DNA of 64,000 nucleotides, from positions 736,001 through 800,000 of the forward strand of contig CAWKNZ010000002.1 in assembly GCA_963851265.1 (NCBI GenBank). Direction: 5' to 3'. This document shows positions 10,755 to 30,065 of this stretch, piece by piece (positions within the stretch are counted from its first letter, which is position 1; each line of letters begins with the position of its first letter). The stretch comes from an uncultured Gemmatimonadales bacterium (GTDB taxonomy: Bacteria > Gemmatimonadota > Gemmatimonadetes > Gemmatimonadales > Gemmatimonadaceae). Below the pieces are notes generated by a model. The model ran no database searches, was not told where the DNA came from, and saw nothing but the letters and a program-made list of their open reading frames with translations. Made by a program: the position numbers and the translations under genes.

Positions 10755-11765
10755 GTGCAGCCGAGCGTCCACGACGTCCGCCGGAGGCTGGGCGCGCTGC
10801 TCCCGTCCGCCGCGCTCGTCGGCGCGGACGACGGCCCCGGCCTCGAGCGCACCTCGGGCCCCCCGGTGGACCCGCCGCGCGTGCGAGCGGCCGCGCCCGT
10901 CGAGGGGCATGCGGTGCGCGCGCGGCGCGTGCCGGCCGCGGTCGCGCCGGAGCAGGGGTTCTCGGCGTTCCTCGACGGCACGCAGCACTCGCGCGTGATC
11001 GGCTACGTGGACGGGCTGCCGGTGGTGCACGGCACGGTCGCGGCGGTGGTGCGCGTGCGGCGCAACCGCCGCCTCACGACGTGGGGGCGGGGCCCGGTGG
11101 TCGAGCGCCGCGTCTACGCCCCGCTCGCGTGCTTCGCCGCGTCGGCCCGCGCGGCGCTCGACGCGCTCGCGGCCGAGCTCGGGCTCGACCTCGTCGACAC
11201 GGCCGAGCCCCGGCCGGGCGAGGACGTGATCTCGGCCCACCCGTTCGCGGTGAGCGACCGCGCGCTCGGCATGGTGAAGGAAGACCGCGAGCGCGCGGAG
11301 AAGGCGCTCGCGGAGCGCTGGTGCCGGCAGGAGCACGAGCCGCTGTTCGTCGACGGCGGGATTCAGGAGAGCGAACTCGTGGCGCGCGCCGGGTGCGTGG
11401 CCGGCGTGGTGAAGAGCCACCGCACGCTCTACGTCGACGCCGACGCGCTACGCACGGTGCTCGGGCTGCGGCAGGGGGAGCGGTCGACGGCGTTCCTCGT
11501 CGGCGGCGGGCGCCGCGCGACGGTGGCCAGCTGGTACCTGCGGCTGCGCGACCCGGCGGGGCACGACCCGATGTGGGGCCTCGTGCGCGTCGAGGCCGCC
11601 GCGCCCGACCCGGCCGAGGCGCCCGACGCGTTCACGGCGCGGCTCGACCGGCTGTCGCGGTGGATCGCGGCGGAGGCGGCGCCGCTCTCGCTACCCGACG
11701 CGCGGTGGGACAAGCTGGCGTACGGGGTACACGACTGCGAGCAGTTCCTGCGCGCAGTGTGTTAG
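10755..11765 (+). CDS. NurA-like nuclease domain protein
   Basis: FLDG, LFVDGG, GVVKSH, GERSTAF, SWYLRLR, GLVRVE and a C-terminal E-containing helix; the pattern matches bacterial NurA-domain proteins. Confidence 0.7.
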   Translation: MQPSVHDVRRRLGALLPSAALVGADDGPGLERTSGPPVDPPRVRAAAPVEGHAVRARRVPAAVAPEQGFSAFLDGTQHSRVIGYVDGLPVVHGTVAAVVRVRRNRRLTTWGRGPVVERRVYAPLACFAASARAALDALAAELGLDLVDTAEPRPGEDVISAHPFAVSDRALGMVKEDRERAEKALAERWCRQEHEPLFVDGGIQESELVARAGCVAGVVKSHRTLYVDADALRTVLGLRQGERSTAFLVGGGRRATVASWYLRLRDPAGHDPMWGLVRVEAAAPDPAEAPDAFTARLDRLSRWIAAEAAPLSLPDARWDKLAYGVHDCEQFLRAVC

Positions 11766-13921
11766 GCACGGGGTATTGGGTCGGCCGCGTCGTCACCCGC
11801 AGCCACGCACCGCAGCACCTCCGCCACGCTCCATGCCTGCGCGATGCACCCGCGCGGCGTGTACGGCGCCTCGGCGTCGAACACCTCGGCGATCGACCCG
11901 ACCCCGAACTCGCCCAGGTGGTCGAGGAGCGCGTCCAGGTACTGCCGGGCGCCGGCGTCGTCGCCGGGGTGCAGCTTGCGCCACGCGTCCACCCACGGCC
12001 CGATGAGCCACCCCCACACCGTTCCCTGGTGGTACGCGGCGTCGCGCGCGCGCAGGTTGCCGAAGTACTGCGCCTTGTACTCCGGGCTCCCCGGGGCGAG
12101 CGAGCGCAGGCCGTAGGGCGTCAGGAGTCGTATTTCGCACGCGGTGACCACCGCGTCCCAACGGGCGCGGTCGAGCACCGGGTTGGGCAGGGAGATCGCG
12201 AACAGCTGGTTGGGGCGGAACTCGGTCGAGTCGCCGTCCGGCCCGTCCACGACGTCGTACAGGTAGCCGCCCGCGTCGTACCAGAAGCGCGCGTTGAACG
12301 CGTCGCGCACCCGATCGGCCGCGTCCTCGTAGAGCGCCGCCGCTTCCGGACCGCGCGCCTCACGCGTCCACCGCGCGAGGTTGGCGAGGGCATTGTACCA
12401 GAGCGCGTTGATCTCGACCGGCTTGCCGCGCCTGGGCGTGACCACCCAGCCGTCGACCTTGGCGTCCATCCAGGTCAGCTGGAATCCCTCGGCGCCCTCG
12501 CGCAGGAGGCCGTCGGCGGGGTCCACGCCGATCCCGAAGCGCGTGCCCGCCGTGTGACGCGCGACGATGTCCTGCAGCACCGGGAGCAACTGTCTGACCG
12601 TCGCGCGGTCGCCGGTGATGCGGTCGTAGCGGTCGAGCGCGTGGAAGAACCAGAGCGTCGCGTCGGCGGTGTGGTACAGGCCGTCGTTGCTGCCATCCGG
12701 GAACATGTTCGGGATGAGGCCGTCGCGCACGTACTGCGCGAACGTTCGCAGGATGAACCCCGCCTCGCGCCACCGCCCGGTGGTCAGCGTGAGCCCCTCG
12801 AGCGAGATCATCGTGTCGCGCCCCCAATCCGTGAACCAGTGATAGCCGGCGATCACGGTGCGCACCTCGTCGCCGGTGGCCTGCGCGCGCACGCGGTCGT
12901 GCAGGCGGCCGGACGGCATGATGAGGAACTGGTCGGCGGCGAGCACCAGCTCCGCGGCGCGCGGGTCGGCCTCGAGCGCGCGGCGTACAGCGGCGTGCGG
13001 CATCTCGAGCAGCCGCCGGCGCCGTTCGTGCTCCGCGGCGCGGGCGTCGGCGGGGCTCAACGCGCGCATCACGTCCGGGCTCTCGGTCGAGGCGACGAGC
13101 GTGACGGGCGCGTCGGGCGCGAGTTGCAGCACGAAGTGGCCCGGCGACCACAGTGCGCCGCGGTCGGCGTAGCCGCGTGACTCCTCGACCCGGTACAGCA
13201 GATCCCGCGTGCGGAGCGGGTCGAGCGTCGGCGTCGCCTGCGCGCCCACGAACCCGAGTCGCAGGGACGGGAGGTCCGGGCGCCCCGCGAGCGTGACGAC
13301 GTAGTACTCGTCTTCGGCGCTGAGCCGGTACTGCTGGTCCGCGGCGGTCGCCGCGACGTCGGCCTCGTAGCCGCGAAAGTCGAGCGCGGGGCGCAGCTCG
13401 AGTTGGGCCGGCGCGGGTCCGGCGAGCGTGTACGTGATGTGCACGCTGTTCTGCCGGTAGGGCATGAGCAGGCGCTTCTCGATCGTCGCCATGCCGGCCC
13501 CCGTTCCGATGCGATAGACCCACACCGGGAGCCCCGCCTCGAGCCGGAACTCGGGCAGCAGGCGCACGCCCTCGGCGTCGAGCAGGCGGCCGTCGGCCCA
13601 CTCGGCCGCGCTCAGCGTGACGGTGGTGCCGTCGGCCAGGGTGACGCGCTCGATGAGGTGGTTGAGCATCACCATGCGGCCTAACGGGTTGGGCAGCGCG
13701 GCGACGAGCACGCCGTGGTACTTCCGCGTGGGGAGCGAGGCCACGCTGGCCGAGGCGTACCCGCCGAGGCCGTTGGTGACGAGCCACTCGCGGTCCACGA
13801 GCTCCGCAACGTCGACCGCGGCGCCGTCGGCCGCCGCGGGCCCGGTGATCCGCCGGACGACGCGGTCGACGAGGCGGTCCGACGCGGGCGCGTCGGCGGG
13901 TGCTGCTGGAACGGTGAGCAC
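11762..13921 (-). CDS. Amylo-alpha-1,6-glucosidase / glycogen debranching enzyme (GDE_N + GDE_C)
   Basis: EWLVTNGLGGYAS, IAGYHWFTDWGRDTMISLEGL, LTWMDAK, RPNQLFA, YHQGTVWGWL, GCIAQAWSVAE. Confidence 0.93.
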   Translation of the reverse strand: MLTVPAAPADAPASDRLVDRVVRRITGPAAADGAAVDVAELVDREWLVTNGLGGYASASVASLPTRKYHGVLVAALPNPLGRMVMLNHLIERVTLADGTTVTLSAAEWADGRLLDAEGVRLLPEFRLEAGLPVWVYRIGTGAGMATIEKRLLMPYRQNSVHITYTLAGPAPAQLELRPALDFRGYEADVAATAADQQYRLSAEDEYYVVTLAGRPDLPSLRLGFVGAQATPTLDPLRTRDLLYRVEESRGYADRGALWSPGHFVLQLAPDAPVTLVASTESPDVMRALSPADARAAEHERRRRLLEMPHAAVRRALEADPRAAELVLAADQFLIMPSGRLHDRVRAQATGDEVRTVIAGYHWFTDWGRDTMISLEGLTLTTGRWREAGFILRTFAQYVRDGLIPNMFPDGSNDGLYHTADATLWFFHALDRYDRITGDRATVRQLLPVLQDIVARHTAGTRFGIGVDPADGLLREGAEGFQLTWMDAKVDGWVVTPRRGKPVEINALWYNALANLARWTREARGPEAAALYEDAADRVRDAFNARFWYDAGGYLYDVVDGPDGDSTEFRPNQLFAISLPNPVLDRARWDAVVTACEIRLLTPYGLRSLAPGSPEYKAQYFGNLRARDAAYHQGTVWGWLIGPWVDAWRKLHPGDDAGARQYLDALLDHLGEFGVGSIAEVFDAEAPYTPRGCIAQAWSVAEVLRCVAAGDDAADPIPRA

Positions 13922-13965
13922 GAGTATCGGGTGCGTTCGAGAAGGGTCGGGCGGGACCGGCGCGG

Positions 13966-15957
13966 TCAGCGCGACGGCTCCGGGGCCAGCACCACCGCGC
14001 AGCCGCCGAGCAGGCGCCAGTTTTCACGCGGCCAGCAGAGGTCGGGGCGCTGTGGTGGGCGGCGCGGCTGTTCGCTCGCGTCGAATTCGACGCCGCCGAG
14101 TCCGCCGTACGACGGGTGCTCGCTCGTCCAGCGCGTGCGCCAGCGCATGCCGGCCGGCGGCGCGAGGAGCGGCTCGGGCGCGATGGCGAGGTGCGCGGTG
14201 GCCCCGGTGTTGACGACGAGCAGCCGGTCGTCGCCCCGCGGCCCGAAGTAGCGCAATGCGAACGCCCGGTCGGTGAGGGATGCGCCGTCGAGCGCACCGG
14301 GCGTCGTGCCCACGCCCGTGCGCGGTGTCGCGAACACCGGGTCGTCGCGCCGGAGCGCGATCAGGTCGCGGTGCAGCCGGAGCCACGCGGCGTGCCCGTC
14401 GCGCTCGCGCTCATTCCAGTCGAGCACGCACCGGCGGAACGTCGACTCGTCGGCGGGGCGGGGCAGGGTGGCCTGCATCTCGTCCGTGGCCATGCTCGTG
14501 AACTGCGCGAGCTCGGCGAAGCGTCCGCGCTGGACCGTCGGCGCGAGTTCGGCGTTGTGGTCGGCGAAGTAGAGAAAGGGTGCACTCGCGGCCCACTCCT
14601 GCCCCTGGAACAGCATCGGCAGTTGCGGCCCCAGGAGCAGCGCCGCCGTGAGCGCGCGAAGCGCCCCGGGCGCGGCGATCTGGTGCACGCGCTCGCCGAC
14701 GCCCGCGTTCGCGAGCTGGTCGTGGTTCTCGAGGAAGTGGACGAAGCGCCAGGGGGGTACGCCGAACGCGGGCGTGCCACGCCGCTTGCGCTGCCACCGG
14801 TACCACTGGCCCTGGTACAGAAAGCCGTACTTGGCCGCGGCGACGAATTCGCGCGCGCCGCCGGCGTAGTCGGTGAAGTACGCTTCGTCGCGCAGCGCGA
14901 GCGCGACGAACGCGCTGTGGTGCCAGTCGTCGTTCCAGACCGCGTCGAGGCCGTTCCCGCCGTCGCCCGCGGGCGTGACGAGCGCGACGTCCTGCGGCTC
15001 GTTCTCATTGACGATCCACGTCGCGCGCCCGCCGAGCGCGTCGCCCGCGGCGCGCACCGCAGCGCCGATCTGGGTGAGCACGTGCACGGGCGAGGTGTCG
15101 ACGATCGCCTGGGTGGCGTCGATCCGGAGTCCGTCGACGTGGAACTCCTCGACCCAGTAGCGCGCGTTGGCGACGTAGAACGCGCGCACCGGCGCGGCGT
15201 GCGCGCCGTCGAAGTTCACGGCGGTGCCCCAGTCGGTGTGGCGCTCGGCGTTGAAGTAGTACGGAGAGAACTGCGGGAGATAGTTCCCGTCCGGCCCCAA
15301 ATGGTTGTAGACGACGTCGAGCACGACCGCGAGGCCGAGCGCGTGCGCCCGGTCGACGAAGCGGCGCATGTCGTCGGGCGTGCCGTACTGCGCGGCCGGG
15401 GCAAACAGCTGCACGCCGTCGTACCCCCAGCCGAACCGCCCCGGGAACTGGTGCACCGGCATGACCTCGATCGTCGTCACACCGAGGTCAGCGAGCGCCG
15501 GGAGTCGCGCGGCCGCGCCGGCCCACGTGCCTTCGGGACTGAACGTGCCGAGGTGGAGTTCGTAGAGCACCTGCCGCGCGGGCTCGGTGATCCCGCGCCA
15601 CGCCGCGTCCGTCCACGCGAACGCGGCCGGATCGACGACTTCCGACGGGCCGTGCGGGCCGTCGGGTTGCGCGCGGGACGCGGGATCGGGGAAGCCGGCG
15701 GTGTGCGGGTCGGCGTTCGCGCCGTCGAGGCGGAAGCGATACCGTGCGCCCGCCACGACCCCCGGGATCTCCGCGCTCCAGTACCCGTCAACGCCGTCGG
15801 CGTCTCGCGACTCGCGCTCGAGCGGCACGACGCGCGCGCCGTCGTCGAGCACGACGTGAACCTGCCGCCGATCAGGCGCCCAGACGCGGAAGTGGACGTG
15901 GTCGGACGAGAGTTCGGCGCCGACGGGCAGGCGCCGGACTCGCAAACGGGCGGTCAT
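13966..15957 (-). CDS. treZ: Malto-oligosyltrehalose trehalohydrolase (GH13)
   Basis: FRVWAP, PDPASRAQPDGPHGPS, YELHLGTF, WGYDGV, DVVYNHLGPDGNYL, DGLRIDATQ, ENHDQ, PMLFQGQEW. Confidence 0.9.
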   Translation of the reverse strand: MTARLRVRRLPVGAELSSDHVHFRVWAPDRRQVHVVLDDGARVVPLERESRDADGVDGYWSAEIPGVVAGARYRFRLDGANADPHTAGFPDPASRAQPDGPHGPSEVVDPAAFAWTDAAWRGITEPARQVLYELHLGTFSPEGTWAGAAARLPALADLGVTTIEVMPVHQFPGRFGWGYDGVQLFAPAAQYGTPDDMRRFVDRAHALGLAVVLDVVYNHLGPDGNYLPQFSPYYFNAERHTDWGTAVNFDGAHAAPVRAFYVANARYWVEEFHVDGLRIDATQAIVDTSPVHVLTQIGAAVRAAGDALGGRATWIVNENEPQDVALVTPAGDGGNGLDAVWNDDWHHSAFVALALRDEAYFTDYAGGAREFVAAAKYGFLYQGQWYRWQRKRRGTPAFGVPPWRFVHFLENHDQLANAGVGERVHQIAAPGALRALTAALLLGPQLPMLFQGQEWAASAPFLYFADHNAELAPTVQRGRFAELAQFTSMATDEMQATLPRPADESTFRRCVLDWNERERDGHAAWLRLHRDLIALRRDDPVFATPRTGVGTTPGALDGASLTDRAFALRYFGPRGDDRLLVVNTGATAHLAIAPEPLLAPPAGMRWRTRWTSEHPSYGGLGGVEFDASEQPRRPPQRPDLCWPRENWRLLGGCAVVLAPEPSR

Positions 15958-16059
15958 GATGCGCGCTACCGAGCACGACCGGTGCCAGCGTCGGCGGCCC
16001 GCACGGCGGGCCCGAGTGCGCGGGCCCGCTCGACGAGCCCGCACCCTCGGTCCGCTCCG

Positions 16060-19953: not shown

Positions 19954-20664
19954 ATGGCCCACGCGAACGATGCCATGAACGCGGAGAGCGCCTCGCCGCT
20001 CACGGGGCGCCGGATCGCGGTGCTCGCCGCCGATGGCGTCGAACAGGTCGAGCTCGTCCAGCCTACCGAAGCGCTCCGGAAGGCGGGTGCGACGGTGGAG
20101 CTGATCTCGCTCAAGCCGGGCGAGATTCAGGCCCTCAATCACGATATCGAAAAGGGCGACCGTTTTCCGGTCGACAAAGTGGTCGCCGACGCGAACGCGG
20201 GGGATTACGACGCACTGTTCGTCCCGGGCGGCGTCTCCAATCCCGACAAGCTCCGCGTCGACGCCGGCGCGGTGCAGTTCGTGCGCGACTTCGTCGAGCG
20301 CGACAAGCCGGTGGCCGCGATCTGTCACGGGCCGTGGGTCCTCGTCGAGGCCGACGCGGTCCGCGGCCGGACGCTCACGTCGTGGCCGTCGCTCAAGACC
20401 GACATCACGAATGCCGGCGGCGAGTGGCAGGACCGGGAGGTCATCGTCGATCAGAAGCTCGTCACCAGCCGCAAGCCCGACGACCTCGCGGCGTTCTGCG
20501 AGAAGATCGTCTCGGTGTTCGGCTCGGCCGTCGAGGAGCGCACGCTCGACCGCCAGCTCGAGCAGACGTTCCCCGCGAGCGACCCGCTCCCCGGGCCGAC
20601 GAGCACCGGCGCGATGAACGAAAAGCGGAGCGCCTCGCGCGAGGAGCCCGCGCCCGCGGCGTGA
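19954..20664 (+). CDS. PfpI/DJ-1 family (type 1 glutamine amidotransferase-like) protein with C-terminal FPASDP extension
   Basis: IAVLAADGVEQVEL, YDALFVPGG, AAICHGPWVL, LVTSRKPDDL. Confidence 0.92.
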   Translation: MAHANDAMNAESASPLTGRRIAVLAADGVEQVELVQPTEALRKAGATVELISLKPGEIQALNHDIEKGDRFPVDKVVADANAGDYDALFVPGGVSNPDKLRVDAGAVQFVRDFVERDKPVAAICHGPWVLVEADAVRGRTLTSWPSLKTDITNAGGEWQDREVIVDQKLVTSRKPDDLAAFCEKIVSVFGSAVEERTLDRQLEQTFPASDPLPGPTSTGAMNEKRSASREEPAPAA

Positions 20665-20806
20665 TCACCGCGGGTGGCGGGTCGTGCGCGCGGGCGGGGA
20701 CCGGCACCGCCGGGCTTGCCCGCCCGCCCGGCAGACGTAACGTAGAGCGGCCGCGCACTGCACGTGCGCGGCCGCTTTCGCACGTCCCCCGCCGTGGGTT
20801 TCTGCC

Positions 20807-22000
20807 ATGGAAGCGCGCAGCATCCCGTTCCCGATCGCCGCCCGGCGCGCCCACCCGCGAGTCGCGGCTCTCCCGTGGCCGCTCGCCGCGACCCTGTTCG
20901 CCGCGACGAGCATCGCCGTCGGCATCATCTGGGACATCTCGTGGCACATGTCCATCGGGCGCGACACGTTCTGGACGCCCGCCCACATGGCCATCTACGC
21001 GGGCGGCGTCGCGGGCGGACTCGCCAACGCGTGGCGCATCTTCCGCACGACGTGGTCGGCGGACGACGACGCGCGGGCGGGCGCCGTCCGCGTGTGGGGC
21101 TTCCACGGTCCGTTAGGCGCGTTCGTCTCGTGCTGGGGCGCGGGCGCGATGCTCGTCTCCGCGCCGTTCGACAACTGGTGGCACGACGCGTACGGCCTCG
21201 ACGTGCAGATCCTCTCGCCGCCGCACACGGTGCTGCTGCTCGGAATCGCGGGTGTGCTGCTCGGCGCCCTGCTCACGGCGATCGCGTTCCAGAACGCCGC
21301 GGAGGCGGGCGGGTACCCGGCGGAGCGCGTGGCGACGTTCCGCGTCGCGTACGTGTACGCGTCGGCGCTCCTGGTCACCATGGCCAGCATCGGCGCGTAC
21401 GAGTACACACGGCCCATCATGCTGCACAGCGGGCGGTTCGTGCGCGCGACGGCGTGGGCGTTCCCGCTCTTCTTCTGTGCGGTCGCACGCGCATCGCGCC
21501 TGCGCTGGCCGGCGACCGTCACGGCGCTGCTCTACATGGTGATGTTCGCCGCGACGTCGTGGATCCTGCCGCTGTTCCCCGCGACGCCGAAGCTCGGGCC
21601 GATCTACAACCCGATCACGCACATGGTGCCGCTCGGGTTCCCGCTGCTCTTCGTCGTCCCCGCGTTCGCCATCGATCTCGTGCTGCGCCGATGGACGCGC
21701 CCGCCGGGGTGGGCGCTCGCCGCCGTGCTCGGTGCGTCGTTCGTCTGCCTCGTCCTGGTGGTGCACTGGCCGTTCGGCACGTTCCTGCTCTCGAGCGCGT
21801 CGCACAACCGGTTCTTTGCCGGCGGTCAGTTCAGCTACGGCGTGCCTCCGACGGCGTTTTCGCGCCGCGGCGTGTTCCCTCCGGTCGAGAAGAGCGCGGC
21901 CGAGTACTGGTCACGGGTCGGTTGGGCGGTGGTGATCGCGACCGTGTCGGCGCGCCTCGGGCTCGCGTGGGGCGGGTGGATGCGGCGGGTGCGACGGTGA
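20807..22000 (+). CDS. Polytopic membrane protein with two D-x2-W-H...P-x-H putative metal-binding motifs
   Basis: About 10 hydrophobic segments; WDISWHMSIGRDTFWTPAH and FDNWWHDAYGLDVQILSPPH. Confidence 0.8.
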   Translation: MEARSIPFPIAARRAHPRVAALPWPLAATLFAATSIAVGIIWDISWHMSIGRDTFWTPAHMAIYAGGVAGGLANAWRIFRTTWSADDDARAGAVRVWGFHGPLGAFVSCWGAGAMLVSAPFDNWWHDAYGLDVQILSPPHTVLLLGIAGVLLGALLTAIAFQNAAEAGGYPAERVATFRVAYVYASALLVTMASIGAYEYTRPIMLHSGRFVRATAWAFPLFFCAVARASRLRWPATVTALLYMVMFAATSWILPLFPATPKLGPIYNPITHMVPLGFPLLFVVPAFAIDLVLRRWTRPPGWALAAVLGASFVCLVLVVHWPFGTFLLSSASHNRFFAGGQFSYGVPPTAFSRRGVFPPVEKSAAEYWSRVGWAVVIATVSARLGLAWGGWMRRVRR

Positions 22001-23547
22001 GTGGGCGCGCGCACGCGTGCCGGGCGTGGCGCGCCGTGCGCGTCGCGATCGCCTGGGCGCTCGTGTTCTGCGCCACGCCGGCCGGCGCGCACGTCGGCAC
22101 GACTGACGCCGTGTTCAGCGGACGTGCGGGGCCGTATCCGGTCCGCGTGACCGTGCGGATGCCGGGCGCGATCCCCGGTCAGGCCGAACTCACCGTGCGG
22201 GTGCTCGACGGCGCGGGGACCGGCGTGTTGGTGCAGGTCGCGCAGTGGAACGTCGGCTCGCGCGGTGCGCCCGCGCCCGAACCGGCCGCGCGCGTCGCCG
22301 GCACCGCCGACCTGTGGAGCGCCCCACTCTGGCTGATGACGAGCGGCTCGTACGCGGCCAACGTGACGGTCGACGGCGCCCGGGGGCGTGCGACGGTGAC
22401 CGTACCGGTCGTTGCCGTGCCGACCACGCGGCTCGGGATGGATCGTCGGCTCGGCGCGCTGCTCGCGGCGTTGGGCGTCGTGCTCGTCGCCGGTCTCGTC
22501 GCCGTCGTCGCTGCGGGCGTGCGCGACGGCACTCGCGCGCCCGGTGCCGCGCTCGACGGGCCGGCGCGCCGGCTCGGCCGCCTCACGACGGCAGTCACCG
22601 CGGCCGTCGTCGCGCTCGCGCTCGTCGGCGGCGCGAAGTGGTGGGGCGCGGAAGACGCCGCGTTCGCGGGCGGGCTCTGGCGCCCGCTGCGGAGCGAAGC
22701 GCGCGTGCTCGACGGGGCCGACGGTCCGCGCCTCCGCTTCACCGTCACCGATTCGGCGTGGTTCGACTCGACGCTCACGCCGCTGATGCCGGACCACGGC
22801 AAGCTCATGCACCTGTTCGCGGTGCGCGAGTCGCCGACGACCGGACCGCGACGCGACTCGGCGCCCCGCGGTCGCGACGTGTTCGCCCACCTGCACCCCG
22901 TGCGCGTGGACCGGGCCAACTTCGACGCGCCGCTGCCCACGCTTCCCGGCGGTCGCTACCGCGTGTACGCCGACGTCGTGCACGAGAGCGGGCTCGCGCG
23001 CACCCTCGTCGCGACGCTGGACCTGCCCGACGCGGCGGTCGCGATCCCGGCCGGGGGGCTCGACGCGGGCGACGACGCGTGGGACGCGGTGCGCCCGCCG
23101 CCGCCCGGCGCGGCCGCATCGTTAGGCGCGGGCTACCGCCTGACGATGGAGAGCGCCGCCCGCGTGCCCGCGGCGCGCGACACCGTACTCCGCTTCACGG
23201 TGCGCGACGCGGCGGGGCGGGTGGCCGACGTGGAGCCATACCTCGGCATGGCCGCGCACGCGGTCGTCGAGCGCGACGACGGCAGCGTGTTCGTCCACCT
23301 CCACCCGTCGGGCACGGTCTCGATGGCGGCGCAGGACCGGCTCGTGCGCCGCGAGCGCGGCGACACCGCGCTCCACGGCGCCGCGCAGCCCGGCGGCATG
23401 CCGGGCATGGCCGGCATGCAGACGACGTACGGGGGCGACGTGGGATTCCCGTTCAGCTTCCCGAAGCCCGGCGCCTACCGCGTGTGGGTGCAGGTGCGCG
23501 TGGCCGGGCACGTACGCACGGCGGCGTTCGACGTGACCGCGAGCTGA
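21997..23547 (+). CDS. Exported/membrane His-rich hypothetical protein (signal peptide, N-terminal His, 2 TM, His motifs)
   Basis: GTGA overlap with the upstream stop; ATPAGA|HVG; two TM helices; DHGKLMHLF, FAHLHP, YLGMAAH, FVHLHPSG, MPGMAGM. Confidence 0.78.
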   Translation: MSGRAHACRAWRAVRVAIAWALVFCATPAGAHVGTTDAVFSGRAGPYPVRVTVRMPGAIPGQAELTVRVLDGAGTGVLVQVAQWNVGSRGAPAPEPAARVAGTADLWSAPLWLMTSGSYAANVTVDGARGRATVTVPVVAVPTTRLGMDRRLGALLAALGVVLVAGLVAVVAAGVRDGTRAPGAALDGPARRLGRLTTAVTAAVVALALVGGAKWWGAEDAAFAGGLWRPLRSEARVLDGADGPRLRFTVTDSAWFDSTLTPLMPDHGKLMHLFAVRESPTTGPRRDSAPRGRDVFAHLHPVRVDRANFDAPLPTLPGGRYRVYADVVHESGLARTLVATLDLPDAAVAIPAGGLDAGDDAWDAVRPPPPGAAASLGAGYRLTMESAARVPAARDTVLRFTVRDAAGRVADVEPYLGMAAHAVVERDDGSVFVHLHPSGTVSMAAQDRLVRRERGDTALHGAAQPGGMPGMAGMQTTYGGDVGFPFSFPKPGAYRVWVQVRVAGHVRTAAFDVTAS

Positions 23548-23591
23548 CGAGACCGCCCGTTCGGGCGCCGCCGCCGGGCCGCGGGACGCCG

Positions 23592-24074
23592 TTACGCGTC
23601 CTGCGCCGCCCCCTCCGCGCCCGACTCGACGCCGCCGCGCGTCGCGCCGTACGCGCCCGCGCCCGGCGCGCCCCGTGCCCCGCCGTGGTGCGCGCCGCCG
23701 GGCGTCGCGCTCAGGTCGGCGGGGTCGAAGTAGGCGGTGAACCGCGTGATCTTGCCGTTTGCCGTCTCGAACACGCTCACGCCGTCGTAGCTCGTCTTCA
23801 CGCCGGCCGCGGTCTCGCAGTCGCTCGTCCATTCCAGCATCGCCTTGTCGTCGCTCTCGAGGATGCTGTGGAAGCGCGAGTGGATGGTCGCGAACGACTT
23901 CCGGTACGCGTCCCAGAACTTGCGCGCGCCCTCCACGCCGGTCTGCGGTTCGTGCTCGGTCGGGTTGCTGGTGCGGGCGTCGTCGGCGTAGAGCGCGGCG
24001 AGCGCGTCCACGTTGCCCGCGTCCTCGACCTGGCGCAGGGCGGCGATGAATTCGTCGGCGGTGGGCTTGGCCAT
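23592..24074 (-). CDS. SnoaL-like / NTF2 family protein
   Basis: RBS GAGGA before ATG 24074; DALAALYADDA, GARKFWDAY, YDGVSVFE...ITRFTAYFD. Confidence 0.85.
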   Translation of the reverse strand: MAKPTADEFIAALRQVEDAGNVDALAALYADDARTSNPTEHEPQTGVEGARKFWDAYRKSFATIHSRFHSILESDDKAMLEWTSDCETAAGVKTSYDGVSVFETANGKITRFTAYFDPADLSATPGGAHHGGARGAPGAGAYGATRGGVESGAEGAAQDA

Positions 24075-24088
24075 CGTGTGATCCTCGT

Positions 24089-24946
24089 TCAGGGTTTGGT
24101 GCCGATCGCCGCGGTCCACTCGGCGACCTGTTCGGGCGTCATGTTGCCGTACGGCGCGAGCCGACCGTCGGTGTAGCCCCACTCGGTGACGTCGGGCAGG
24201 TACTGCTGTCGTGAGAGGATCGTGCCCCGGCAGAGCCGCCCGACGTCGGCGTCGGCGTCGAGTTCGCTCGCGGCGCGCGAGAGCAGCTCGGCCATGACGG
24301 AACTCGGAATGCGCGTGCGCTCGCCGGGATACACGAAGCCGAACAGGAGCAGGTGCGTGAGCAGCACCCGCCAGTAGTCGCCGAACCGGTCGAGGACGCG
24401 TGCCCAGTCGAGGTGCTCGGCGCGGGCGCGCAGCAGGTGGATCACGTCGCCGCCGTCGTACCGCTCGCGCTCCATCACGAAGCTCTTGGACCAGAGCATC
24501 TCCTCGGCCGGCGCGACCCGCACGTCCACGCCGAGCACGCGACACGAGGGCGCGTGCTCGAACCAGCCTGCGTCGACCGGCGCGGCACCGTTCCCCGAGC
24601 CGAAGATCAGGTCGACGAACTCCTTCCCCCAGAACGCCTTCCCGAGCCAATGCGGGAAGGTGAGCTCGGTGCGGAAGCCCGCCGCGTCCAGCACGTCGAG
24701 CGCGCGACCGATATCGGCGTGCGCGACGAACAGGTCGAAGTCCTTCGTCGAGCGCGGGATTCCCGTCACCGGTGTGAACGCGTAGGCCCCACCTACGAGG
24801 AACGGCACTTCGCCGGATTGCAGCGTCGCCATCACGCGGCGGTAGACGCCCTGCGCGGCCGGCGAGGCGAGGTCCGCACGCCGCGGCGGGCGCTCGTGCG
24901 CGCGGCGGTCGTCGTCGTGCGCGGCGGTCGCTGGGGTGTGAGGCAT
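24089..24946 (-). CDS. Uncharacterised nucleotidyltransferase (Pol-beta superfamily)
   Basis: FLVGGAYA...STKDFDLFV (hG[GS]-x-DxD) and FVDLIF. Start uncertain. Confidence 0.82.
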   Translation of the reverse strand: MPHTPATAAHDDDRRAHERPPRRADLASPAAQGVYRRVMATLQSGEVPFLVGGAYAFTPVTGIPRSTKDFDLFVAHADIGRALDVLDAAGFRTELTFPHWLGKAFWGKEFVDLIFGSGNGAAPVDAGWFEHAPSCRVLGVDVRVAPAEEMLWSKSFVMERERYDGGDVIHLLRARAEHLDWARVLDRFGDYWRVLLTHLLLFGFVYPGERTRIPSSVMAELLSRAASELDADADVGRLCRGTILSRQQYLPDVTEWGYTDGRLAPYGNMTPEQVAEWTAAIGTKP

Positions 24947-25142
24947 GCGCTGACGGCGAGGATCGGTGGGCGTGAGCGACCGGCGGGGGCGGTCGGCGGA
25001 ACGGATGTTGAATCCCCCCGGCGCGACCTTCCACGACCGCGCGCCGTCGCGGGCATCCGGGGCCACGCCGGGCTCCCGCGTGCCTACTCGCGGGAGCCGG
25101 CCCGATCGCACGGGCCGCGAGCGCGCCGACTTAGCATCAGCC

Positions 25143-25949
25143 ATGCCCAACCTCCGTATCGCGGCGATGAGCGACGTGCACGTCACGAAAACGTCGCAAG
25201 GCGCGCTCGCGCCGATCCTCGCGCAGGTGGCCGACCAGGCCGACGTGCTGCTCCTCTGCGGTGATCTGACCGACTACGGCAACGCCGACGAGGCGCGCGT
25301 GCTCGTGAAGGAGCTGTCGCACCTCCGCATCCCGATCCTCGCCGTGCTCGGCAACCACGACTTCGAGGGCGGCCACCCGGAGCAGCTCGTCGACGCGCTC
25401 CGCGACGCGGGCGTCGTCGTGCTCGACGGCGAGTCGCACGAGGTGGGCGGCGTGGGCTTCGCCGGCGCGAAGGGCTTCGCGGGCGGCTTCGGCCGCGGGG
25501 TGCTCGGCGCGTGGGGCGAGCCGACGGTCAAGCACTTCGTGCAGGAGGCGGTGAGCGAGACGCTGAAGCTCGAGACGGCGCTCGCGCGACTCCGCACGCG
25601 GCAGAAGGTCGCGCTCCTCCACTATTCCCCGATCCGCGCGACGGTCGAGGGCGAGCCGCTCGAGATCTTCCCGTGGCTGGGTTGCGGGCGGCACGAGGAG
25701 CCGCTGCTGCGCTATCAGGTGAGCGCCGTGTTCCACGGGCACGCGCACAACGGCACGCCCGAAGGCGCGCTCGCCAACGGCGCGCCGTGCTACAACGTGG
25801 CGCTGCCGCTGCTCCGGAAGCAGTTCCCCGACCGGCTGCCCGTCAAGATCATCGAGCTCGACCCCGACGAAGCGCCTAACGCCCCGCCCGACGCGTACAG
25901 CGGGATGGAGCGGCGCCGGGCGGGCGCGGGGGCGAACGGGGCGGCGTGA
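25143..25949 (+). CDS. Calcineurin-like metallophosphoesterase (Icc-related)
   Basis: SDVH, CGDLTD, LGNHD, LLHYSP, FHGHAH. Confidence 0.9.
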   Translation: MPNLRIAAMSDVHVTKTSQGALAPILAQVADQADVLLLCGDLTDYGNADEARVLVKELSHLRIPILAVLGNHDFEGGHPEQLVDALRDAGVVVLDGESHEVGGVGFAGAKGFAGGFGRGVLGAWGEPTVKHFVQEAVSETLKLETALARLRTRQKVALLHYSPIRATVEGEPLEIFPWLGCGRHEEPLLRYQVSAVFHGHAHNGTPEGALANGAPCYNVALPLLRKQFPDRLPVKIIELDPDEAPNAPPDAYSGMERRRAGAGANGAA

Positions 25950-25981
25950 CCTGCGCGGGCGACGTCGCGCCGCCCGTCGCT

Positions 25982-26040
25982 CGTCACCCCCGCTTGCGCG
26001 GGGGTGACAGCTCTCGGGGGTGGTGACCCCACCACCCCCG
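25982..26040. repeat. Two adjacent hairpins (REP-like / bidirectional terminator)
   Basis: GTCACCCCCGC-TTGC-GCGGGGGTGAC (25983-26008) and CGGGGGTGGTG-ACCC-CACCACCCCCG (26015-26040), between convergent genes. Confidence 0.7.
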
Positions 26041-26049
26041 CCGGCCGTT

Positions 26050-27228
26050 CTACGGCTTCAACACCACCTTGATGCACCCGTCCTTCTTGTCGCGGAAGGT
26101 CCGGTACATCTCGGGCGCCTTGTCGATCGGCACGCGGTGGGTGATGACCTGCGACGGGTCAATCTTCCCGGCCTCGATCATGTCGAGCAGCGGGCGCAGG
26201 TACTTCTGCGTGTTCGTCTGCCCCATCTTGAACGTGAGGCCCTTCGCGAACGCCGCGCCCATCGGGAACTTGTCGATGAACCCGATGTAGACGCCCGGAA
26301 TGCTCACCGTGCCGCCCTTCGCGCAGGCCATGATCGCCTCGCGGAGCGCCGTCGCGCGGTCGAGTTGCACCTTGGTGAACTGCTTGAACCGGTCGACCTG
26401 ATCGTAGATGCCGGTCCCGTGCGCCTCCATCCCGACCGCGTCGATCACGTGGTCCGGCCCGCGGCCGCCGGTCATGTCCTTCAGCACGAAGTTGATCGGG
26501 TCCTCGATCTCCTCGTAGTTCACGACCTCGGCCTTACACAGGTCGCGCGCCTTGGCCAGCCGGTCGGGGAAGCGGTCCACCGCGATCACCCGCTCGGCGC
26601 CTAACAGATACGCGCTCTGGATCGCGAACAGCCCCACCGGCCCGCAGCCCCACACCGCCACCGTGTCCCCGGGCTGGATGCCGCACTGCTCCGCCGCCTG
26701 GTAGCCCGTCGGGAAGATGTCGGTGAGAAAGAGCACCTTCTCGTCGGCGATGTCGCTCTCGATCTTGAGCGGCCCGACGTCGGCGAACGGGACGCGCGCG
26801 TACTCGGCCTGGCCGCCCGCGTACCCGCCGTACAGGTGCGAGTACCCGAACAGCCCCGACGGGCTGAACCCGCCGGTCGACGCCTCGACGAGCGCGGCGT
26901 TCGGGTTGGAGTTGTCGCACTGCGACCAGAGGTCGTTCTTGCAGTAGTAGCAGTTGCCGCACGCGATCCCGAACGGGATCACCACGCGGTCACCGCGCTT
27001 GAGGTTCTTGACGCTCGGGCCCACCTCCTCGACCACGCCCATGAACTCGTGGCCCATGACGTCGCCCTTCATCATCGACGGGACCTTGCCGTCGTAGGGG
27101 TGGAGGTCCGAACCACAGATCGCGGTCGAGGTGATCTTGATGATCGCGTCGCGCGGGTTGACGAGCTCGGGGTCGGGCACGCGCTCGACGCGCATGTCGC
27201 CGACGCCCTGCCAGGTCACGGCCTTCAT
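26050..27228 (-). CDS. Zinc-dependent alcohol/formaldehyde dehydrogenase-like protein (MDR family)
   Basis: [21 protein letters not shown]...[25 protein letters not shown]. Confidence 0.93.
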
Positions 27229-28280
27229 CAGCGGCCTTCCTTCGGCGTGAGGGTGGAATTGGCCCCGCGCGCCTGGTCGGACGGCATGGGCTGGTGCACC
27301 GCCTGATGCGCGCTGGCGGCCGCGTGCTGCTGCGCCCCGCGGACGTTGGCGCCGGTCTGGCCCTGGTTGACCTGGGCGTCGAACGCCTGGTGCGGCGGCT
27401 TGCCCTGACCGGGGTTGTAGCTGACGGGAATCTCGCCCGCCTCCATCAGGTTCTTGTAGCGCCGCAGGTCCTCGCGCACCTGTACGCTCGGTTCTTCACC
27501 GAACAGCTTCGCGACCGCAACGCCCAGCTTTCCGAGCGGCGGCTCGTACGACAACTCGACTTTCACCTCCGCCCCGCGCCCGGCCGGCGCCTCGCGGAAG
27601 GTCACCGCGCCCGCATTCGGCACGCTCGCGCCGGGCAGCGACCGCCAGGCGATGATCTGCCCGGGCACGTCGTTCACGATCTCCGCGTCCCACTCGACCG
27701 TCTGCCCCGCCGGCGCCTTCGCGACCCAGTGCGAGCGACGGTTGTCGAGCTCCTTCACGCTCTCGAGATGGTGCAGAATGCGCGGAAGGTTCTCGAGCTT
27801 GCGCCAGTAGTCGTACAGCTCGCCCGGCATGCGCCCGAAGATCGTGAACGTCTGGATCACGCGCTTCGCCGCCTGCGCGTCCACCGACGCGCCGCCACCG
27901 TGCTGGCGCACCACGCCGCCCTCGTCCTTGTGCGGGAGCGCGGCGCCATCGCCCGTCTCGTCCATGCTCGTGAGGCCGAGCGCGTCGTACGCCATGCAGT
28001 GCCCGGTCACGCCGCGCTCGACCAGCAGGCCGCCGACCACGCCCGCCGCGAGCCCGCCCCAGTCCTTGCGCTTGAGCCCGTACGCCGCGATTGCCGTGCC
28101 CGCCGCGATCGACACCGCACGCTCGATCGAGTTGACGTTGTTGCCCGCGTGCTCGCGCTCGCCGTCGCGCGCGGTCGCGCCGTGCCGTCCGTGCTCCTTC
28201 TGCGGATCGCCGCGTCCGTTAGACGCGTGCGAGCGGGCGGCGTCGGCGCCGCCGTACATCGCTTCGGAAGATCGTGCCAT
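27228..28280 (-). CDS. SRPBCC/polyketide-cyclase-like protein with N-terminal membrane (DUF2892-like) segment
   Basis: NVNSIER...[55 protein letters not shown]. Confidence 0.87.
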
Positions 28281-28302
28281 CGTCAGCCTCCGTGATCGCG
28301 CG

Positions 28303-29196
28303 TCAGAGCGCGCTGTGAGTGGGCTTGTTGCGCAGCCCGTCGCGCGTGTGCTCCAGCTTGAGGTCGCTCTCGGGCTCCTTCTTCAGCGCGCGGTCGGCCT
28401 GCGGACCCATCGACCCCTTCACGATCGTCGTCCCGCCGTCCACGAAGAACAGCGCGCCGGTCACGTAGCTCGCCTCGTCCGAGGCGAGGAACGCGAAGGC
28501 GTTGGCCATCTCCGTCGCCGTCCCGCGACGGCCTAACAGGGTGCCCTCGACCGTTTGCGTCTCCATGGTCTTCGTCATCGGGCCGGTCTCCCGGTGCGTC
28601 CACGCGGTGTCGACTGGGCCCGGACAGACGCACGCCGCGCGCACGCCGTTCTTCGCCTGCTCGCCCGCCACGCCGCGGATGAACGCGTGCATGAAGCCCT
28701 TGGTCCCGCCGTAGGGCACGTTGAGCGGCTCGCCCTTGTCCCCCGCCTCGGAGCCGGTGCCGAGCACCACGCCCTTGCTCTTCTGCAGGTGCGGCAGGGC
28801 GAACTTCGTCATCAGGAACGCCGACCGGACGTTCATCCGCAGCGTGCGGTCGAAGTCGTCGATCGGGTAGTCGGTCAGCTCGCCGGTGAACAGGAAGATT
28901 CCCGCGTTGTTCACGAGTACGTCGAGCTGCCCGAACTCACGCACCGCCTTGTCCACGCAGCCGCGCGCGTCGACCTCGGCCGAGACGTCGCCCGCGTATC
29001 CGACCGCGGTTCCGCGCCCGTACTGCTTGTTGATCGCCTCGACCACGTCGGCGACGGGATCGTCCGGAAGGCCGCAGACGAGCACCTTCGCCCCTTCCGA
29101 CGCGAACTTGTGCGCAGTGGCCTCGCCGATCCCCGTTGCGGCGCCAGTGATGATCGCCACCTTCCCCTCCAACCGCCCTTTTCGATCCGCTGCCAT
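28303..29196 (-). CDS. Short-chain dehydrogenase/reductase
   Basis: TGAATGIG, LVNNAG, catalytic YGGTK, FLASDEASYVTG. Confidence 0.93.
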   Translation of the reverse strand: MAADRKGRLEGKVAIITGAATGIGEATAHKFASEGAKVLVCGLPDDPVADVVEAINKQYGRGTAVGYAGDVSAEVDARGCVDKAVREFGQLDVLVNNAGIFLFTGELTDYPIDDFDRTLRMNVRSAFLMTKFALPHLQKSKGVVLGTGSEAGDKGEPLNVPYGGTKGFMHAFIRGVAGEQAKNGVRAACVCPGPVDTAWTHRETGPMTKTMETQTVEGTLLGRRGTATEMANAFAFLASDEASYVTGALFFVDGGTTIVKGSMGPQADRALKKEPESDLKLEHTRDGLRNKPTHSAL

Positions 29197-29423: not shown

Positions 29424-30065
29424 CTAGCGTCGGACCGTCGAATCGCGCACGATCACGCCGCACGCGATCCGCACGCCCGCGTTCCCGCCCGGGTCGCTGC
29501 TGTAATCGTCGGGGTCGCTGTGGATCATCAGCGCCGTGCCCTGCGGCGTGAACAGCGAGTTGGCGCCCTGGCCGAGGGTGACGTCGCGCGTGATCGCGTC
29601 GACCCGCACGCCGCCGCTCGCCGGCGCCGTGAAGTTGGGCAGGTCGCCCGCGTGATACCCGGAGCGGTTCTTCACGCCGTGCTGGCGGAACGAGGGATTG
29701 TAGTGCCCGCCTGCACTCGTGAAGGGCGGCTCGCAGCGGCCGACTTCGTGGATGTGCATCGCGTGCACCCCCGCCGGAAGTCCGGTGAGCTGGGCCGTGA
29801 CGATCACGCCGTACGGCGCCTGCGTGAACGTCGCCGTGCCTACCGACCGGCCGTCCGCGTCGTGCAGGTCGGCCCGGGCACCAGGCACGTTGGTGTTGAA
29901 CGTGGACTGGCCGAAGGTGCCCCGGGGGCCGCCGACGCCGAACCCACCCGGCCGGTTGGGATTACCGTTCGGTGCGCCCGAGCCGTTCGGACCCGCGCCC
30001 GAAGCGCACGAGGTGAGCAGTACGCCGGCGAGCGTCGCGGCGCCGAGAATCGAGAGTGGTCGCAT
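29424..30065 (-). CDS. sodC: Cu/Zn superoxide dismutase (lipoprotein)
   Basis: Lipobox LTSC; HAMHIHE, AGGHYNP, QHG, HAGDLPN, IHSDPDD, GNAGVRIACG; all expected metal ligands present. Confidence 0.92.
   Translation of the reverse strand: MRPLSILGAATLAGVLLTSCASGAGPNGSGAPNGNPNRPGGFGVGGPRGTFGQSTFNTNVPGARADLHDADGRSVGTATFTQAPYGVIVTAQLTGLPAGVHAMHIHEVGRCEPPFTSAGGHYNPSFRQHGVKNRSGYHAGDLPNFTAPASGGVRVDAITRDVTLGQGANSLFTPQGTALMIHSDPDDYSSDPGGNAGVRIACGVIVRDSTVRR

Follow-up and report, generated by a model that had tools for sequence, protein, structure and literature searches.

A widespread and apparently undescribed bacterial gene pair with predicted similarity to the catalytic core of copper membrane monooxygenases

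Here we describe two overlapping genes, gene 1 and gene 2, in a 64,000-nucleotide stretch of DNA (the window) from an uncultured Gemmatimonadales bacterium (GenBank assembly GCA_963851265.1, contig CAWKNZ010000002.1, positions 736,001 to 800,000 of the forward strand). The gene pair is real and widespread, it is apparently undescribed, and its two products together likely form an undescribed copper enzyme. Gene 1 is predicted to fuse, within a single membrane protein, a two-site core like that of PmoC/AmoC, the C subunit of the copper membrane monooxygenases (CuMMOs, such as pMMO, the particulate methane monooxygenase, and AMO, the ammonia monooxygenase), to a domain with the fold of the A subunit, PmoA/AmoA, and gene 2 encodes a histidine-rich partner. 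Searches of Pfam and NCBIfam with both proteins gave nothing above noise, single-sequence searches of the PDB gave no useful match, the matching clusters in the ESM Atlas are unnamed or auto-named only, and the nearest named homologues, in Gemmatirosa and Roseisolibacter, are annotated as hypothetical. A literature search that included locus tags and accessions, and that covered few subscription papers and excluded supplements, found no published description of the family.

The two proteins of the gene pair

The motifs, gene ends, GTGA coupling and His following A-G-A that an original prediction had reported from the DNA letters were all found in place. At the GTGA junction, the GTG start of gene 2 at 21997 overlaps the TGA stop of gene 1; in the database annotation the gene 2 protein has 503 aa, which makes a later GTG at 22036 an alternative start. 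The six Asp and His ligands of the two gene 1 motifs (D43, H47, H60, D122, H126, and H140), whose conservation the original prediction had singled out as a check, are kept in 121/121 close homologues in an alignment and in 80/80 genome loci (here and below, the 80 best of at least 585 loci), a count that leans high because the loci were retrieved by patterns containing part of the motifs. They are also kept in 120–126 of the 126 members of a more diverse alignment (A2), which were chosen by whole-protein score, and the second-shell residues R52, W46, W124, W125, Y129, D132, and S137 are likewise present in 80/80 loci. In the genome of the host itself, a loose form of the tandem motif was found in 3 of 16,149 six-frame open reading frames (ORFs), two of them being shadow frames. 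Separately, four full-length relatives (proteins P0302, P0336, P0355, and P0378) have lost several metal ligands at both sites and kept the remainder.

In excerpts of PMC12801151, AmoC holds the copper ion CuC by Asp134/His138/His151 and CuD by Asn205/His209/His223, and the two ions are the proposed CuMMO active site. A profile of the diverse gene 1 alignment gave only three matches in the PDB, all of them AmoC (E 3e-4 to 5e-4). With hhalign, residues 20–168 of gene 1 aligned with 60 PmoC/AmoC sequences, drawn from metagenome loci, over 106 columns with both motifs in register (prob 92.7, E 4.3e-7). Hairpin 1 of gene 1 matched hairpin 1 of PmoC (prob 96), and most of the alignment score stems from motif 1, for which a relationship to PmoC/AmoC had been proposed originally and now finds support. 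Within the gene 1 family, hairpins 1 and 2 recognized each other (prob 84, and 97 in actinobacteria), compared with 0.4 for the PmoC hairpins against each other. Motif 2 had been regarded as a second copy of motif 1; the two hairpins are indeed repeats, but motif 2 is more than a copy, being in register with CuD. The mutual similarity of the hairpins suggests a more symmetrical, possibly ancestral state of the core. In an unrooted tree of 36 cores, built without archaeal AmoC, the 14 PmoC/AmoC rows form one side of a very long branch (100/100).

The AlphaFold model of gene 1 (predicted local distance difference test, pLDDT, 94.5) contains ten long, membrane-length helices, in agreement with the earlier estimate of about ten. 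The loop charges fit a predicted topology that places the two termini on the inside and the two sites at the outer membrane face, and it is only at this predicted outer face that gene 1 has invariant His residues. Besides M115, no strongly conserved line of Met, Cys, or His crosses the membrane (M244 in 51/80, Cys at 74 in 53/80, and M392 in 59/80). A catalytic pocket therefore fits the distribution of conserved residues better than a channel does.

The original prediction had seen no PmoA homologue, but a PmoA-like predicted fold makes up the C-terminal half of gene 1. Residues 167–397 superposed on the PmoA/AmoA chains of 11 entries with Z 13.2–14.6 over 193–212 residues (root mean square deviation, rmsd, 3.9–6.3) and on two older PmoA/AmoA crystal structures with Z 9.1 and 8.4, the next unrelated row having 7.7. 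Among the Foldseek matches listed, only PmoA/AmoA had a prob >0.9. Of the fold comparison with pMMO subunits that had been suggested, the PmoA/AmoA part thus gave matches; PmoB and PmoC chains were not among the rows listed, which does not exclude them. A profile alignment of this half with 44 PmoA sequences was weak (prob 7–12%) but collinear over 205 columns. Because a wide fold search ranks ECF S-components together with PmoA (Z up to 12.7, 166 residues), the fold is common to a transporter family; in separate searches PmoA stands above the S-components (Z 14.6 versus 12.7, 205 versus 166 residues). The six-helix domain (window 21305–21997) is matched alike by PmoA, ECF S-components, and MreD (PDB 3chx_B, 5edl_A, and 9dvb_D). 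These common matches, made with a predicted model, suggest that PmoA shares the S-component fold, and a literature search on these terms found no published account linking the two. As described in excerpts of PMC12804982, AmoC TM3–6 and AmoA TM1 (transmembrane helices) build the channel that holds both coppers; gene 1 would have counterparts of these five channel helices in one chain.

The gene 2 model (pLDDT 92.6) comprises a signal helix, a β-sandwich, two membrane helices, and then two mutually repeated β-sandwiches. His32, encoded at 22090 directly after A-G-A, is the predicted first residue of the mature protein. At the predicted cleavage site of the homologues, Ala or Gly occupies position −1 in 79/79 and His follows in 78/79, so that the N-terminal His, free if cleavage occurs as predicted, is conserved as had been anticipated. 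This His is the only conserved one in residues 32–145, and the His residues of domains 2 and 3 are nearly invariant; H-x-H motifs occur in domains 2 and 3 and none in domain 1. The Met-rich MPGMAGM stretch, which had been listed as a feature, does not hold up across the family: M468 is kept in 4, M471 in 27, and M474 in 8 of 120 homologues, the tail is variable, and the Met-rich stretch is lineage-specific.

The fold matches of gene 2 are generic Ig-like domains. For domain 1, CBM56 was best (Z 10.4), with CrdA (9ll2, Z 8.9) and CopC (5icu, Z 7.8) below it, and the match of gene 2 to CrdA by sequence was weak (E 0.13). Gene 2 had been said to echo PmoB. Its layout does so, but comparison with 36 bacterial PmoB sequences gave no convincing profile match, and PmoB was not among the 50 rows listed in a fold search that used the whole-protein model and had archaeal AmoB outside its comparison. 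A short stretch of domain 2 (window 22744–22797) resembled the PmoB C terminus over 27–29 columns (prob 11–25) and was not accepted; Asp, Trp, Leu, and Asp are in register there, which may be chance.

Distribution, single-ORF form, and genomic neighborhood

For gene 1, 7,469 of 8,000 scored candidates were relatives; its family has at least 7,469 clusters at the 90% identity level and 1,936 at 50%. For gene 2, relatives numbered 2,025 of 8,000. The genome loci span Gemmatimonadota, Acidobacteriota, Verrucomicrobiota, Bacteroidota, Methylomirabilota, and others, and gene 2 directly follows gene 1 in 79/80 of them, the contig of the remaining one ending 122 bases later. The pair is therefore conserved across several phyla, a point that had been left to be checked. 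Similarly, a sample of 201 genomes from the host phylum contained 48 with gene 1 and 45 with gene 2, and each of those 45 also had gene 1. The pair is common in soil bacteria that are not known to oxidize methane or ammonia; Gemmatirosa kalamazoonensis carries it as J421_3793/J421_3792. A viral fold library, phage records, and IMG/VR contained no relative of the gene pair.

A plasmid search revealed distant gene 1 relatives in Actinomycetota in which gene 1 is joined to the His-first domain in one ORF, and this form is new here. The five intact fusions, in Mycolicibacterium chubuense, M. aubagnense, Streptomyces sp. F2, S. mirabilis, and Leifsonia shinshuensis, are single ORFs of 475–496 aa with both motifs, the membrane region, an internal A-x-A followed by HDPGQG, a β domain, and a final helix. 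Their membrane region aligns to gene 1 residues 26–254 (prob 99.7), and the best match of their β domain is domain 1 of gene 2 (prob 49, E 1.8e-4); weak YtkA/FixH matches were obtained for the Streptomyces fusion. Accessions of the Streptomyces single ORFs include WP_024126299 and WP_212728630. Consistent with the result for gene 1, all 5/5 matches of a profile of the fusions in the PDB were AmoC/PmoC, and one fusion, used as query, retrieved a true C subunit from a genome. The M. chubuense NBB4 plasmid NC_018022.1 (L207 and L233) carries both a true CuMMO C subunit (574397–575080) and the fused relative (406589–408058).

Four of the five fusions are located in copper or heavy-metal islands, with HMA, heavy-metal ATPase, multicopper oxidase, or cupredoxin genes no more than 9 kb away; because plasmids are rich in resistance islands, this sample of copper contexts is biased. 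For the M. aubagnense fusion, such neighbors are limited to a CopY/BlaI-type regulator and a YHS protein, and a sixth relative, on a Rubrobacter plasmid, is seemingly split, without any copper gene less than 8 kb away. Homologues of gene 2 domains 2 and 3 occur on 2/5 fusion plasmids, one of them adjoining an HMA-domain gene. A sample centered on G201 and aimed at actinobacterial chromosomes yielded two-gene forms; one of its loci (L215) was set aside and supports no claim here. An 806-aa apparent fusion of genes 1 and 2 was rejected as frameshifted mid-protein, and the search of longer proteins behind it is weak evidence on fusions.

Around the two-gene form, 613 kb of sequence held a copper-protein match at 6/80 loci (three SodC, two multicopper oxidases, and one SCO, which was itself a query), compared with 7 ORF matches in the 4.6 Mb of the host's own genome; related loci are not independent in this comparison. 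These few copper neighbors are thus SodC, multicopper oxidase, and SCO, and not efflux genes. A SodC gene lies near the pair in three Gemmatimonadaceae loci too (L011, L012, and L062), and in the window one is found 5.9 kb downstream of the pair (29424–30065, − strand), the only SodC match of its genome.

At one locus (L206:3743–11153), genes 1 and 2 are separated by a GMC oxidoreductase gene, a gluconate-dehydrogenase-subunit-3-like gene, and two further ORFs, and gene 2 is followed by a small cupredoxin gene. Divergent gene 1 copies without gene 2 (L205:5858–6997, L203:5577–6644, and L204:5847–6656) lie within surface-polysaccharide clusters, among genes for a sulfotransferase, a GNAT-like protein, an acyl-carrier-like ORF, a FabG-like reductase, and an AMP-ligase. 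In the L205 copy, site 2 is intact and the first His of site 1 is Gln.

The features of the pair are collected in Table 1. No sigma-70-type promoter was seen for it, and two terminator-like matches were disregarded, their positions being inside gene 1. Its neighbors in the window (11762–16044 and 19954–29196) are ordinary genes for glycogen debranching, alpha-amylase family, PfpI/DJ-1, SnoaL-like, nucleotidyltransferase, metallophosphoesterase, zinc dehydrogenase, cyclase-domain, and short-chain dehydrogenase proteins, resembling a general-stress region.

Table 1. Coordinates of the gene pair and its predicted features in the window
Feature	Position	Strand	Remarks
Gene 1	20807..22000	+	ATG to TGA, 397 aa, ten predicted membrane helices; predicted PmoC-like core fused to PmoA-like domain (AlphaFold model pLDDT 94.5)
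PmoC/AmoC-like two-site core, helices 1–4, residues 24–166	20876..21304	+	Internal two-fold repeat; hhalign to PmoC prob 92.7
Site 1, D43-x3-H47-x12-H60, with R52 and D53	20930..20986	+	Putative CuC equivalent
Site 2, D122-x3-H126-x13-H140	21167..21226	+	In register with CuD, Asp replacing Asn
Predicted PmoA/AmoA-like fold, helices 5–10, residues 167–397	21305..21997	+	Similar also to ECF S-components
Gene 2	21997..23547	+	516 aa from GTG 21997; membrane-anchored, predicted periplasmic partner (model pLDDT 92.6)
Predicted signal peptide ending A-G-A	21997..22089	+	Cleavage predicted from sequence pattern
Domain 1, His-first Ig-like β-sandwich, CrdA/CopC/YtkA-like shape	22090..22425	+	Part fused to gene 1 in actinobacteria
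Two membrane helices, residues 150–225	22444..22671	+	Structure model
Domain 2, Ig-like	22681..23031	+	D266, H267, H272, H298, H300 invariant
Domain 3, repeat of domain 2 (prob 94)	23059..23544	+	M418, H421, H434, H436 conserved
Variable Met/His tail within domain 3	23398..23418	+	Homologue alignment

Candidate functions of the gene pair

The two functions offered by the original prediction, a CuMMO-related oxidase and copper acquisition or delivery, remain the two leading explanations. We favor the first, with a little less than even confidence, as a membrane oxidase or oxygenase that is loaded with copper and acts on a membrane-soluble substrate. In the mechanism we propose, the two conserved Asp-His-His motifs of gene 1 would bind copper at the outer membrane face, in a pocket like the active site of methane and ammonia monooxygenases, and this center would be loaded or serviced by gene 2 with copper captured in the periplasm. 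The twin site would then activate O2 with electrons from the quinol pool, and the substrate, for example a lipid, would be soluble in the membrane and of greater size than methane or ammonia. A copper oxidase or oxygenase is suggested because the six ligands and the second-shell residues are kept in all 80 loci, because the ligand spacings in gene 1 equal those of CuC and CuD and four C-type helices lead directly into the A-like domain, and because 4/5 fusions lie near copper genes and the few copper neighbors of the two-gene form are not efflux genes. Also in favor of this reading are one AMO structure in which, according to excerpts of PMC12801151, a lipid is positioned between CuC and CuD, and the divergent L205 copy, which has site 2 and lies in the cluster with acyl-carrier-like, FabG-like, and AMP-ligase genes. 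Copper as the metal, binding between the two proteins, the use of quinol electrons in O2 activation, and a membrane-soluble substrate are all inferred.

Several results weigh against a copper oxygenase. Hairpin 2 of gene 1 alone had no profile similarity to hairpin 2 of PmoC (prob 0.17), and block-shuffled controls scored near the observed values (47.9 versus 49.1 and 27.3 versus 28.0), though 0/40 reached them; the assignment of site 2 to CuD therefore draws on spacing and collinearity. For PmoA, Foldseek gave E-values >0.1; superposition on a PmoC chain was absent from the listed fold matches of the gene 1 model, whose N-terminal half had cytochrome b561 as its best listed match (Z 8.7). The 80 loci, where 136 immediate neighbors of 573 called genes were scanned, contained no conserved reductase, pathway, or third gene, and two of the three gene-1-only copies (L203 and L204) have lost both sites yet retain the PmoA-like half. 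Asp-His-His sites can also bind Zn, as noted for CuC in excerpts of PMC12804982, and copper handling would account for a place in copper-resistance islands no less well.

Copper handling is a close and nearly as probable alternative, in which the His domains of gene 2 would collect periplasmic copper and the gene 1 sites would change its redox state or move it across the membrane; CopC/CopD provides the analogy for such collection and transfer. Besides the copper-island context of the fusions and the absence of pathway neighbors, it gains from the CrdA/CopC-like shape of domain 1 and one Atlas neighbor cluster auto-named CopC family, from the domain 2/3 homologues on 2/5 fusion plasmids (one beside the HMA-domain gene), and from the resemblance of the C-terminal half to ECF S-components, weakly including Ni/Co ones. 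However, no conserved ligand path leads through the membrane, PmoA outscores the S-components, the plasmid sample is biased toward resistance islands, and no P1B-ATPase, HMA, or CsoR match was obtained with a limited query set in the 613 kb around the two-gene loci. In addition, excerpts of PMC9195940 report no marked change in metal tolerance from a cosmid that carried copYZ of the S. mirabilis plasmid and that may or may not include the fused gene.

We consider it improbable that the pair forms a Zn- or Fe-dependent membrane enzyme (a hydrolase, transferase, or envelope-remodeling enzyme) in which the CuMMO scaffold would serve again but oxygen chemistry would play no part. Asp at both sites would provide harder ligand sets, the copper islands also hold RipB, L,D-transpeptidase, and M23 peptidase genes, and the divergent gene 1 copies lie within surface-polysaccharide clusters. 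Conversely, all PDB matches of both family profiles were AmoC/PmoC (3/3 and 5/5), and in the two-gene and single-ORF forms alike the partner opens with a conserved His that follows an A-x-A site. A first-residue His after such a site is a typical pattern of copper proteins.

Whether CuC and CuD of pMMO and AMO act singly or jointly, and how, is not yet settled, and outside their membranes both enzymes become less active or inactive (excerpts of PMC12801151 and PMC11725843). With both motifs and an A-like fold in one chain and a large family, gene 1 is a small target for expression, mutagenesis, and spectroscopy; the actinobacterial version adds the His-first domain to the same chain, and the gene 1 family provides an outgroup for CuMMO origin. 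A true oxygenase would mean unrecognized copper chemistry in abundant soil bacteria, and a copper handler would suggest that CuMMOs share ancestry with a copper-handling module. More speculatively, and with some doubt on our part, the family could be a sister lineage of the CuMMOs with an ancestral, symmetrical two-site core and a C-plus-A channel in one chain, activating O2 in thousands of soil bacteria, and the actinobacterial single ORF would then be a minimal model, open to expression, of the active site of pMMO.

Comparison with known systems

Gene 1 is like PmoC/AmoC (PF04896; PDB 9cl6_C, 9pxf_G, 9leg_C, and 7s4l_C) in its two three-ligand motifs, CuC/CuD spacing, four helices, the R-D after the first His, and the P-x-H ends. 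It differs in having the four core helices only, in 79 residues between the sites (versus 71–74), in hairpins that are still recognizable repeats, unlike those of PmoC, and in site 2, where Asp in 80/80 loci replaces the Asn of 60/60 PmoC/AmoC sequences with both His at exact spacing. The family falls below the PF04896 cut-off (best member E 0.0011; 19/127 members at E ≤ 1). Three Phe invariant in 60/60 PmoC/AmoC sequences, which we take to be the phenylalanines named as lining the CuMMO pocket, map to Y64 (Y58/Q19/H3), I135 (I68/V12), and L143 (80) in gene 1. The C-terminal half is like PmoA/AmoA (PF02461; PDB 7s4l_B, 6cxh_B, 7s4h_B, and 9leg_A) in predicted fold, over ∼205 residues at an rmsd of about 4 Å, but it is fused behind the C core, has 12–17% identity, and does not keep the GDWDFW motif.

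Gene 2 is like PmoB/AmoB (PF04744) in its position after C and A, signal peptide, first His, β domain, two membrane helices, and further β domain. It differs in its Ig-like fold matches, in lacking H-x-H in domain 1, and in having one more domain; the three-His CuB site of the N-terminal PmoB domain has no complete counterpart in domain 1, where His32 is the sole conserved His, although His residues of domains 2 and 3 might complete one. In excerpts of PMC9038741, archaeal AmoC and AmoB are also truncated and bacterial and archaeal AmoB share only 9.7% identity, and distant kinship of gene 2 with PmoB is therefore possible. Domain 1 resembles the CopC/CrdA/YtkA-like Ig domains in shape and in its predicted N-terminal His on an Ig-like periplasmic domain, but unrelated Ig domains reach Z values at least as high, and it has only one conserved His; neither protein matched Pfam CopC or CopD at E ≤ 1. 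ECF S-components share the six-helix fold with gene 1 residues 174–397 (Z up to 12.7), but in gene 1 this fold is joined to a metal-site core, the identity is 4–13%, and no ECF module was present among the 136 immediate neighbors.

Instead of the three-gene xmoCAB layout, we found two genes in 79/80 loci and one ORF on five actinobacterial plasmids, in collinear order. That order (C, A, and a His-first domain) is what a fourth, very divergent lineage of true CuMMOs, oxidizing methane, ammonia, or short alkanes with gene 2 as subunit B, would have, and the low AmoB identity across domains in the excerpts of PMC9038741 makes the missing similarity to bacterial PmoB weak evidence against it. Nevertheless, we regard such a lineage as very unlikely, given the single conserved His in domain 1, the absence of conserved downstream oxidation genes at the 80 loci, the very long branch to PmoC/AmoC, the true C subunit elsewhere on the M. 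chubuense plasmid, and the replacement of the three Phe near the ligands by Tyr/Gln, Ile/Val, and Leu. The host's own genome (94% complete) contains no xmoA, B, or C by Pfam (PF04896, PF02461, and PF04744) or by our own profiles, in searches whose positive controls worked (two were matched with PF04896). Because of this absence and the replaced Phe, the gene pair is not classed as a CuMMO, although gene 1 is built like the catalytic core of one.

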